Shown one piece after another: positions 42,690-42,956 of a DNA stretch of 64,000 nt. Below the pieces are notes generated by a model. That model saw nothing but the letters and a program-made list of their open reading frames with translations. It did not search any database and was not told where the DNA came from. The position numbers were made by a program, and so were the translations under genes. The DNA is from an uncultured Gammaproteobacteria bacterium. Lineage in GTDB: Bacteria > Patescibacteriota > Patescibacteriia > UBA11705. Position 1 is the stretch's first letter. Each line of letters begins with the position of its first letter. Location: contig CAYPSS010000001.1 in assembly GCA_964413735.1 (NCBI GenBank), positions 56,237-120,236 of the forward strand. Reading direction: 5' to 3'.

Positions 42690-42880
42690 TCACCCGTTCA
42701 CTAATTAACTTTTGGAGCGGTAGAACGGGCTCCCCTCGATCCTTCGATGAGCTCAGGACTCGGGGTAAACTTCTCACCCGTTCACTAATTAACTTTTGGA
42801 GCGGTAGAACGGGCTCCCCTCGATCCTTCGATGAGCTCAGGACTCGGGGTAAACTTCTCACCCGTTCACTAATTTACTTT
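42690..42880. repeat. Two tandem 84-bp repeats each ending with a copy of the 20-nt 3' end of tRNA-Gly (GAGCCCGTTCTACCGCTCCA)
   Basis: tggagcggtagaacgggctc at 42713, 42797 and in the true tRNA at 42881; ORF 42655..42861 is a repeat artefact. Confidence 0.8.
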
Positions 42881-42956
42881 TGGAGCGGTAGAACGGGCTC
42901 GAACCGTCGACCTTCTCCTTGGCAAGGAGACGTTCTACCAACTGAACTACTACCGC
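42881..42956 (-). tRNA. tRNA-Gly (anticodon GCC), CCA encoded
   Basis: GCGGTAGTAGTTCAGTTGGTAGAACGTCTCCTTGCCAAGGAGAAGGTCGACGGTTCGAGCCCGTTCTACCGCTCCA; anticodon loop TTGCCAA. Confidence 0.85.

Follow-up and report, generated by a model that had tools for sequence, protein, structure and literature searches.

GC-rich palindromic elements of intergenic DNA include the REP/BIME-type repeats, the GC clusters of yeast mitochondria and the palindromic elements of Rickettsia. Genomic islands that integrate into tRNA genes are recognised by a defined signature (Islander, PMC4383910), namely an intact tRNA gene accompanied by a displaced fragment of its end in the same orientation, with a 3' fragment lying downstream of the gene and starting at a crossover subsite. 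The canonical crossover subsites are the anticodon loop, the T loop and the junction between the T and acceptor stems; attP alone takes up about 250 bp and the islands measure 2 kb or more (PMC4383910). Here we analyse an array that recalls this signature, found in a 64,000-nucleotide stretch of contig CAYPSS010000001.1 (positions 56,237 to 120,236 of the forward strand, hereafter the window), which is part of a Candidatus Falkowbacteria chromosome (Patescibacteria, or candidate phyla radiation, CPR) spanning replication genes. In this array, an intact tRNA-Gly(GCC) gene is followed by two 84-bp tandem units that echo its 3' end, and a preliminary description of the same DNA had read them as stacked remnants of integrase attachment (att) sites. 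We see an even chance that the array arose recently when a small segment was duplicated within the spacer of a tRNA-Gly/tRNA-Leu operon and then multiplied through unequal exchange or slippage.

The tRNA-Gly gene occupies 42881-42956 on the minus strand, is intact with an encoded CCA, and was called by both ARAGORN and Rfam (tRNA, 69.9 bits), in agreement with the preliminary description. The sequence scan equally confirmed its three copies of the last 20 nt of the gene at an exact 84-bp period. The 20-mer GAGCCCGTTCTACCGCTCCA occurs at exactly three sites in the 64 kb (42713, 42797 and 42881), all on the minus strand, and was not encountered by chance in any of 100 shuffles, even with 3 mismatches permitted. 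The two tandem units 3' of the gene, each with its copy of the tRNA end, were recovered by Tandem Repeats Finder as a repeat at 42690-42900 with a period of 84, 2.5 copies and 99% matches. The 20-nt core proposed earlier is indeed present three times as copies of the tRNA end, but the block common to the three copies is 43 nt long. These blocks, at 42690-42732, 42774-42816 and 42858-42900, consist of the 20-nt tRNA end (A) and a 23-nt trailer (B) with the sequence AAAGT(T/A)AATTAGTGAACGGGTGA. Successive blocks are parted by a 41-nt segment (C; 56% GC), and the distance between successive tRNA-Gly end copies is 64 nt.

Read in the direction of tRNA-Gly, the layout is tRNA(1-56)-A-B'-C-A-B-C-A-B-flank, with every element on the minus strand. 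The final 20 nt of the gene itself, which run from T-loop position 57 to CCA (A1, 42881-42900), are followed by the trailer copy B' (AAAGTAAATTAGTGAACGGGTGA, 42858-42880), which adjoins tRNA-Gly and holds the sole variant base of the array (A/T at 42875). Next comes the insert C1 (GAAGTTTACCCCGAGTCCTGAGCTCATCGAAGGATCGAGGG, 42817-42857), in which an internal hairpin (CCCC..TCCT..AGGA..GGGG) is seen from its sequence and fold. The first echo of the tRNA end (A2, 42797-42816) and the second trailer copy (42774-42796) lead into the second insert, C2 (42733-42773), which is identical to C1; the second echo (A3, 42713-42732) and the third trailer copy (42690-42712) complete the array, beyond which lies a unique AT-rich flank. 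The two full 84-nt units are identical at every position (84/84, 100%). Segment A starts 3 nt into the 7-nt T loop, between TTC and GAGC, and spans the last 4 bases of the T loop, the 3' strand of the T stem, the 3' strand of the acceptor stem, the discriminator base and CCA. A stretch of the trailer, GAACGGG, is complementary to CCCGTTC of A.

The array is real but fairly ordinary, and it looks like a familiar kind of event, the partial duplication of a gene together with a tandem repeat. As expected of a tandem duplication, the units lie head to tail with near-perfect identity (84/84; 99% over 2.5 copies). In the first step that we propose, a 43-nt piece, made up of the tRNA-Gly end from T-loop position 57 through CCA and the 23-nt trailer of the gene itself, would have been copied just downstream, leaving the 41-nt GC-rich hairpin segment between the two 43-nt copies. 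The resulting 43-nt direct repeats would then permit unequal exchange or replication slippage to generate a second identical 84-bp unit, a step that we infer because the units are 100% identical. A trailer after each of the three tRNA ends is what the copying of a chromosomal segment would give, unlike a pair of attL and attR sites. Furthermore, the echoed 20-mer is a rare variant of the tRNA-Gly end, so that the resident gene is the source of the echoes. A search of 185,579 species genomes and of the Joint Genome Institute (JGI) metagenomes found this 20-mer in a single tRNA gene, from a CPR metagenome-assembled genome (locus L001), where the same tRNA-Gly end is followed by a plain terminator and by no echoes; at the other matches in this collection no tRNA was called, and the one that we read lies inside coding-like GC-rich sequence. 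An essential function of the units is not expected. At most they would affect the folding, processing or stability of the precursor, and the array may have no function at all.

Several other identities of the 84-bp unit were considered and rejected. Because 84 equals 76 + 8, the unit could have been a degenerate full copy of tRNA-Gly. Its 5' 64 nt have no significant tRNA similarity in either orientation, homology to the tRNA does not extend significantly upstream of A in a boundary-anchored alignment (P about 0.06-0.35), a local alignment was equalled by 40% of shuffles, and the units match no tRNA model, being called neither by ARAGORN nor by Rfam RF00005 even at E values up to 10. A protein-coding repeat was likewise rejected, as no open reading frame (ORF) with homologues lies inside the array and the 68-aa ORF that spans the units has no homologue among 5.8 billion proteins. 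Nor are the units origin repeats or a DnaA-box cluster, despite the nearby dnaA and dnaN: DnaA-box matches are at chance level and none falls within the units. For segment C, no relative was found in the window, in the loci fetched for comparison, in viral contigs or, via its reading frames, in the protein database. Fold-back priming was considered as its source and rejected by reading, since the expected copy of the nascent strand (CTCGAACC...) does not follow B.

To place the array in context, we compared the operon with that of relatives, whose loci are cited here by number (L001 to L020). In five related species, a promoter and tRNA-Gly are followed by tRNA-Leu(UAA), always adjoining dnaN, with the same promoter arrangement upstream of tRNA-Gly as in the window. 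Because the Gly-Leu pair is conserved beside dnaN, the units lie inside what was ancestrally a single tRNA operon. The spacer between the two genes measures 69-217 nt in the relatives versus 646 nt in the window, and no Gly 3' echoes were seen in any related locus examined. The short spacers and the lack of echoes in the five species therefore argue that the array was inserted or expanded only recently in this lineage.

The spacer in the window holds, in order, the Gly units, a weak terminator, a palindrome-interrupted 5' fragment of tRNA-Leu and a GIY-YIG gene, and then comes the intact tRNA-Leu. The 5' fragment (42483-42577, minus strand; repeat families D4 and D11) comprises a 15-nt leader and a pseudo-5' part of tRNA-Leu (positions 1-31). 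It is split at the junction of the D stem and anticodon stem by a 47-nt GC-rich palindrome (CTGCCTGC...GCAGGCAG) and terminates at the anticodon stem/loop border. The gene beside it (42238-42471, minus strand) encodes a 77-aa protein with a GIY-YIG nuclease domain only (PF01541, 2.3e-16). This protein has no DNA-binding domain, its matches to homing endonucleases are weak and its PADLOC matches are marginal; its gene lies between two direct copies of the tRNA-Leu leader and positions 1-31 (a duplication of 39-nt + 9-nt). Nothing relevant was found in the literature on GIY-YIG/tRNA associations or on similar echoes in CPR bacteria. Intact tRNA-Leu(UAA), the conserved downstream partner of tRNA-Gly, was called by ARAGORN and Rfam at 42147-42234 on the minus strand. 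It is followed on its 3' side by two 204-bp units (41735-42142, minus strand; repeat families D1, D5, I6 and I7) that are 98% identical. Within each unit there are an intrinsic terminator, a 20-nt antisense copy of the T arm (85% complementary) and a stretch of about 108 nt with three GC-rich hairpins; the unit also holds the tRNA-Leu 3' end, which starts at T-loop position 57 and is interrupted by a 27-nt hairpin. The last 50 nt (3') of the tRNA-Leu units are 88% identical to L017 13857-13906. The 27-nt hairpin itself looks like an alternative acceptor end (..CCCCGCACCA) paired with its complement.

Fragments of tRNA genes with GC-rich inserts are found at this operon also in L017, L018 and L010, where the genes called up to 10 kb away include no integrase family. 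In L017, a 3' fragment of tRNA-Leu lies behind the terminator of the real gene; it is interrupted at T-loop 56/57 by a 51-nt GC palindrome and holds a 27-nt hairpin close to the T/acceptor junction. Across the three copies in the window and L017, one pair of the tRNA-Leu echo hairpin reads C-G, C.A and T-A. L018 has 5' fragments of both tRNA-Gly and tRNA-Leu with a GC-rich insert in each, and in the Leu fragment the position of the insert and the end (CTGGA, at the anticodon stem/loop border) are as in the window. This same disrupted tRNA-Leu 5' fragment, at L018 11521-11597, occurs there without the GIY-YIG gene. L010 carries another 5' Leu fragment, plus a copy of tRNA-Leu(CAA) with a CCTGCCTGCCGG... 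insert. The fragments are often paired with their own inverted copies, as GAACGGG/CCCGTTC at Gly, as a 20-nt inverted T arm at Leu and as GAACTACTGC in L018. We read the array as one case of a lineage-wide tendency in Falkowbacteria for tRNA-end fragments and GC-rich hairpins to gather in the leader, spacer and trailer of this operon. Variants of the palindrome CCTGCCTGCCGGCAGGCAGG sit inside tRNA fragments and elsewhere in the relatives, which suggests a dispersed GC-rich palindromic repeat family in Falkowbacteria; the palindrome and its close variants were located at L017 7464-7606 and 13915-13937, L010 16440-16454 and L018 11379-11391.

Repeats of a further kind lie 3' of tRNA-Leu in relatives, where a 34-nt hairpin is arrayed in 3 copies in L013 and in 5 copies in L014 and L016, assemblies of one species that come from different samples. 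The trailer repeats of this operon therefore vary in copy number. The 34-nt unit reads GCCAGC...GCTGGCAG, with each copy ending ...GGCAGGCCA (L013 11207-11350, L014 11207-11418), and its period comes near the 36 nt of TIGR arrays without matching it; no Tas gene lies nearby. The genes found between tRNA-Leu and dnaN are also different in each species examined, ranging from none in L013 to three in L017. A sister strain is 99% identical to the window across dnaA and dnaN, its contigs diverge from the window at 40797, and beyond dnaN it has a different, non-alignable M50-peptidase-like gene (243 versus 270 aa) before the tRNA-Leu terminator. The stretches compared here are 40797-41905 of the window and L005 3947-4750 of the sister strain. 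The operon spacer is a rearrangement hot spot, and to this extent the landing pad of the preliminary description holds loosely, while its specific reading of stacked att remnants is unsupported.

In relatives, a GC-rich hairpin lies directly 3' of the tRNA-Gly and tRNA-Leu genes of the operon, its outer stem formed by the CCA of the tRNA plus 3 nt pairing with a downstream GGN'TGG. These CCA-anchored trailer hairpins were located at L013 11472-11507 and 11315-11350, L010 12524-12559, L017 14183-14220 and 13819-13856, and L020 13245-13275 and 13034-13063. Within the hairpin a variable position covaries (A:T, G:C, T:A), 11/11 pairs are 100% paired in 5 sequences, and 2 pairs are changed on both sides. 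The motif follows 5/19 of the CCA-encoding tRNAs versus 0.2 expected, with fold z-scores of -3.7 to -4.2, and it matches no Rfam family. It may be a 3'-processing or operon-separating signal, and is arguably more interesting than the Gly array. In the window the motif appears at tRNA-Lys, not at Gly or Leu: by eye, the tRNA-Lys trailer at 58185-58258 (CCA followed by ACCTTCACCAAG...TTTGGCGAAGG) could form a CCA-anchored hairpin like that of the relatives, with CCAA/TTGG and CTTC/GAAG pairing around CGGCTG..CAGCCG.

A sigma-70-like promoter (42973-43000, minus strand; TTGACT-16 nt-TATAAT with an extended TG, 11/12 consensus positions) lies 17 nt upstream of tRNA-Gly. The first terminator-like site downstream of the gene is a weak intrinsic-terminator-like hairpin (ACTCTGTTATTCAGAGT with a T-rich tail) at 42612-42637 on the minus strand, past the array. 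As the predicted promoter and terminator bracket tRNA-Gly plus the repeats, co-transcription, which is the first part of what the preliminary description had named as refuting its reading, is plausible, and judging from these consensus matches the Gly units are probably co-transcribed within the tRNA precursor. In such an RNA each unit is predicted to fold, with GAACGGG of the trailer pairing with CCCGTTC of the echoed end; the 84-nt unit as a whole folds into one hairpin of -25 kcal/mol. No Rfam family matches the array units at E values up to 10, and a known RNA family, a T-box and a group I intron were accordingly rejected. The tRNA introns described in Patescibacteria (PMC13011429) lie in the anticodon loop and are unrelated to the array.

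A number of points weigh against a local segmental duplication. Segment C has no explained source and no relative anywhere searched, and an ad hoc event has to be assumed for the first duplication. The fragment boundary lies exactly at T-loop 56/57, where the neighbouring tRNA-Leu fragments and the L017 insert break too, and random duplication is not expected to strike this point repeatedly; the T loop is a canonical integrase crossover subsite (PMC4383910). Transcription of the array is a prediction, its copy number comes from a single assembly, the unit hairpin is no more stable than shuffled sequence (z = -1.3), and the structure of the Gly unit offers no covariation test because its two copies are identical and have no homologues. 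The recurrent breakpoint would be accounted for if the echoes were decayed att remnants. In that case an element bringing a replacement 3' end for tRNA-Gly would have been inserted by a tyrosine integrase with its crossover in the T loop, the element would have been deleted down to 41 nt and unequal exchange would have duplicated the scar; this amounts to the preliminary reading plus an amplification step. The Islander signature is indeed present, with two same-strand 3' fragments downstream of the intact tRNA-Gly that start in the T loop (position 57) and run to CCA. In addition, the breakpoints fall at canonical subsites (T loop 56/57 three times, the anticodon border twice), C has 56% GC versus about 36% for the genome, and the genes between dnaN and tRNA-Leu differ in every species, even between the window and its 99%-identical sister strain. 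We nevertheless consider this origin unlikely. The scan took in 33 ORFs of the window, including every one of at least 219 aa among the 56 non-overlapping ORFs of at least 90 aa, with 23 shorter ones lying outside it, and none of the 33 has a recombinase or transposase match in Pfam; in the five related species, too, the genes called up to 10 kb from the operon include no member of an integrase family. The gap between copies is a mere 64 nt, whereas attP measures about 250 bp and islands 2 kb or more, and comparable remnants in relatives are all under 200 nt and hold no coding debris. After an integration, the regenerated gene should be followed by element sequence and the displaced fragment by native sequence, and the one 23-nt trailer shared by all three ends (22/23 for the copy adjoining the tRNA) therefore speaks against att sites. 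The search for elements carrying these att cores returned none, its sole match in a tRNA gene being the echo-free L001. In an exact scan of the 2.9 million viral contigs of IMG/VR, neither the Gly 20-mer nor a 23-nt core of segment C was found, nor were the tRNA-Leu 20-mer and the common Falkowbacteria Gly 20-mer, and GenBank phages matched the tRNA body only; this absence of attP is a weak negative, as CPR mobile elements are poorly sampled. Finally, three successive events would be needed (integration, near-total deletion and duplication). Without a recombinase or an attP-like copy, and with 64-nt gaps and a shared trailer, the stacked att-site remnants of the preliminary description were not borne out.

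The clustering of breakpoints at T-loop 56/57 and at the anticodon stem/loop border could also reflect an integrase-free selfish process acting on tRNA genes, in which GC-rich palindromic mini-elements that insert into tRNA-like DNA hairpins, or nicking of the gene loops by the domain-only GIY-YIG nuclease of the operon, followed by repair would give partial tRNA duplications. The GIY-YIG gene lies 240 bp off in the same operon, flanked by the tRNA-Leu 5' duplication; GC-rich palindromes, CCTGCCTGCCGGCAGGCAGG among them, turn up repeatedly in relatives, both within tRNA fragments and at other places, and fragments are often paired with their own inverted copies (Gly, Leu, L018). Yet C is unique, with no second copy anywhere searched, in relatives the fragments occur without a gene for a GIY-YIG or another nuclease in the vicinity, the GIY-YIG protein itself has no DNA-binding domain and resembles homing endonucleases only weakly, and no target-site duplications are visible, so that we rate such a process as quite improbable. 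A functional RNA, in which co-transcribed mimics of the tRNA end would serve precursor folding or processing, or would act as a decoy for an enzyme or toxin recognising the tRNA-Gly 3' end, appears very improbable to us. The array does lie within the predicted transcription unit, and each unit is modelled as a hairpin with a single-stranded ...CCGCUCCA tail. At the same position relatives have the conserved CCA-pairing trailer hairpin with its compensatory changes, and the window and L017 share a conserved tRNA-Leu echo hairpin, in which one pair shows the C-G / C.A / T-A series. What argues against it is that the Gly unit matches nothing in Rfam, folds with unremarkable stability and has no homologue in any relative or database searched, hence no conservation supporting function, while the analogous tRNA-Leu units lie behind strong terminators, which speaks against a need for transcription. 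Taken more broadly, there is a slim prospect that the echoes and fragments come from an undescribed integrase-independent loop-targeting process in CPR bacteria (by GIY-YIG nicking or palindromes), or are co-transcribed mimics recruited for processing or as decoys, which would functionally replace the CCA-anchored hairpin found at this place in relatives. An assembly artefact, in which the repeat loop was traversed too often and the real count is one 84-bp unit, would explain why the two units are 100% identical. Four independent short-read Logan assemblies of the 99%-identical strain end within the tRNA-Leu terminator, and one of the same runs yields a fifth contig that stops inside tRNA-Gly, so that none offers an independent path through the arrays. 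The one-base variant in the tRNA-adjacent trailer implies at least two distinct A-B contexts and a non-variant B/C junction in the data, and one unit alone would leave the phenomenon intact; we give the artefact little credence.

The array lies close to the replication genes of the chromosome, and rnpA, yidD, dnaA (37987-39378) and dnaN (39639-40757) are all in the window. The closest named relatives of its DnaN are from Falkowbacteria, at 66-71% identity, and the cumulative GC skew of the window reverses around the dnaA/dnaN region. Just upstream of the rnpA-dnaA region lies a type III restriction-modification pair (31858-36686; Res 919 aa, Mod 688 aa), beside which a HARE-HTH/PD-(D/E)XK protein is encoded at 30937-31698. 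A second cluster of tRNA-Leu genes, which includes a second tRNA-Leu(UAA) without an encoded CCA, was found at 52462-52648. In the counterpart cluster of L010 (15973-16738), a tRNA-Leu(CAA) copy has a 20-nt GC insert at the D/anticodon junction; this insert-bearing copy adjoins an intact copy, with an unannotated ORF between the two. An intergenic GC-rich inverted repeat of the window at 21840-21965 (CCTGTCATTGCGAGGAGCGAAGCGACGAAGCAATC ... TCGCAATGACAGG) resembles a miniature palindromic element, and a similar motif, GCAATGAC, occurs in L001 near 5570-5600.

Set against described systems, the array has features in common with several. Arrays of repeats that code for small RNAs, namely CRISPR arrays, TIGR arrays (PMC12045711) and the antitoxin repeats of type III toxin-antitoxin systems, share with it repeats of about 40 nt alternating with intervening segments of about 40 nt, a terminator-like site and a small nuclease-domain gene. 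In the Gly array, unlike these systems, the intervening segments are identical and no Cas, Tas (Nop-domain) or ToxN-like protein is present; the period of TIGR arrays is 36 nt versus 84, and the repeat here is a piece of a tRNA gene. A CRISPR or TIGR guide array was thus rejected on the identical 'spacers' and the absence of Cas or Tas proteins among the scanned ORFs. A type III toxin-antitoxin system was rejected because the downstream gene is a GIY-YIG gene with marginal PADLOC matches, where such a system would have a ToxN/AbiE-type endoribonuclease gene, and the tRNA-Leu fragment intervenes. With REP/BIME-type elements the locus shares GC-rich hairpin modules in an AT-rich genome, which cluster in intergenic spacers, form arrays and interrupt those copies of structured genes that are not essential. 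It differs from them in that the 41-nt segment has no other copy, that no RAYT or Y1 transposase was found and that the family is undefined beyond a few motifs.

The likeness to tRNA-integrated islands (Islander, PMC4383910) lies in the intact gene and the stacked same-orientation copies of its 3' end, which run from a T-loop start to CCA. The array is unlike them in having no integrase, 64 nt instead of 2 kb or more, a shared trailer, identical 'spacers' and no attP-bearing element. Short tandem duplications and minisatellites, which arise by slippage or unequal crossing-over, have the same head-to-tail identical units (here 2.5 copies), and the neighbouring arrays vary in the same manner (3 versus 5 copies). 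They differ in that the unit of the array holds a partial gene copy bounded by a structural landmark of the tRNA, and slippage alone leaves the first duplication and the foreign-looking 41-nt filler unexplained. Were one of the less probable readings true, the locus would represent an integrase-free targeting and partial duplication of tRNA genes or, alternatively, RNAs that mimic tRNA ends in organisms with minimal RNA-processing machinery. The Falkowbacteria tRNA-Gly/tRNA-Leu operon beside the replication genes is a small hot spot with tRNA fragments, hairpins, a GIY-YIG gene and a variable repeat copy number. For the detection of islands, this comparison means that a tRNA gene with stacked copies of its 3' end is insufficient for calling an integration site, and that island finders and annotators should ask in addition for an integrase, an element of plausible size and downstream flanks that differ.

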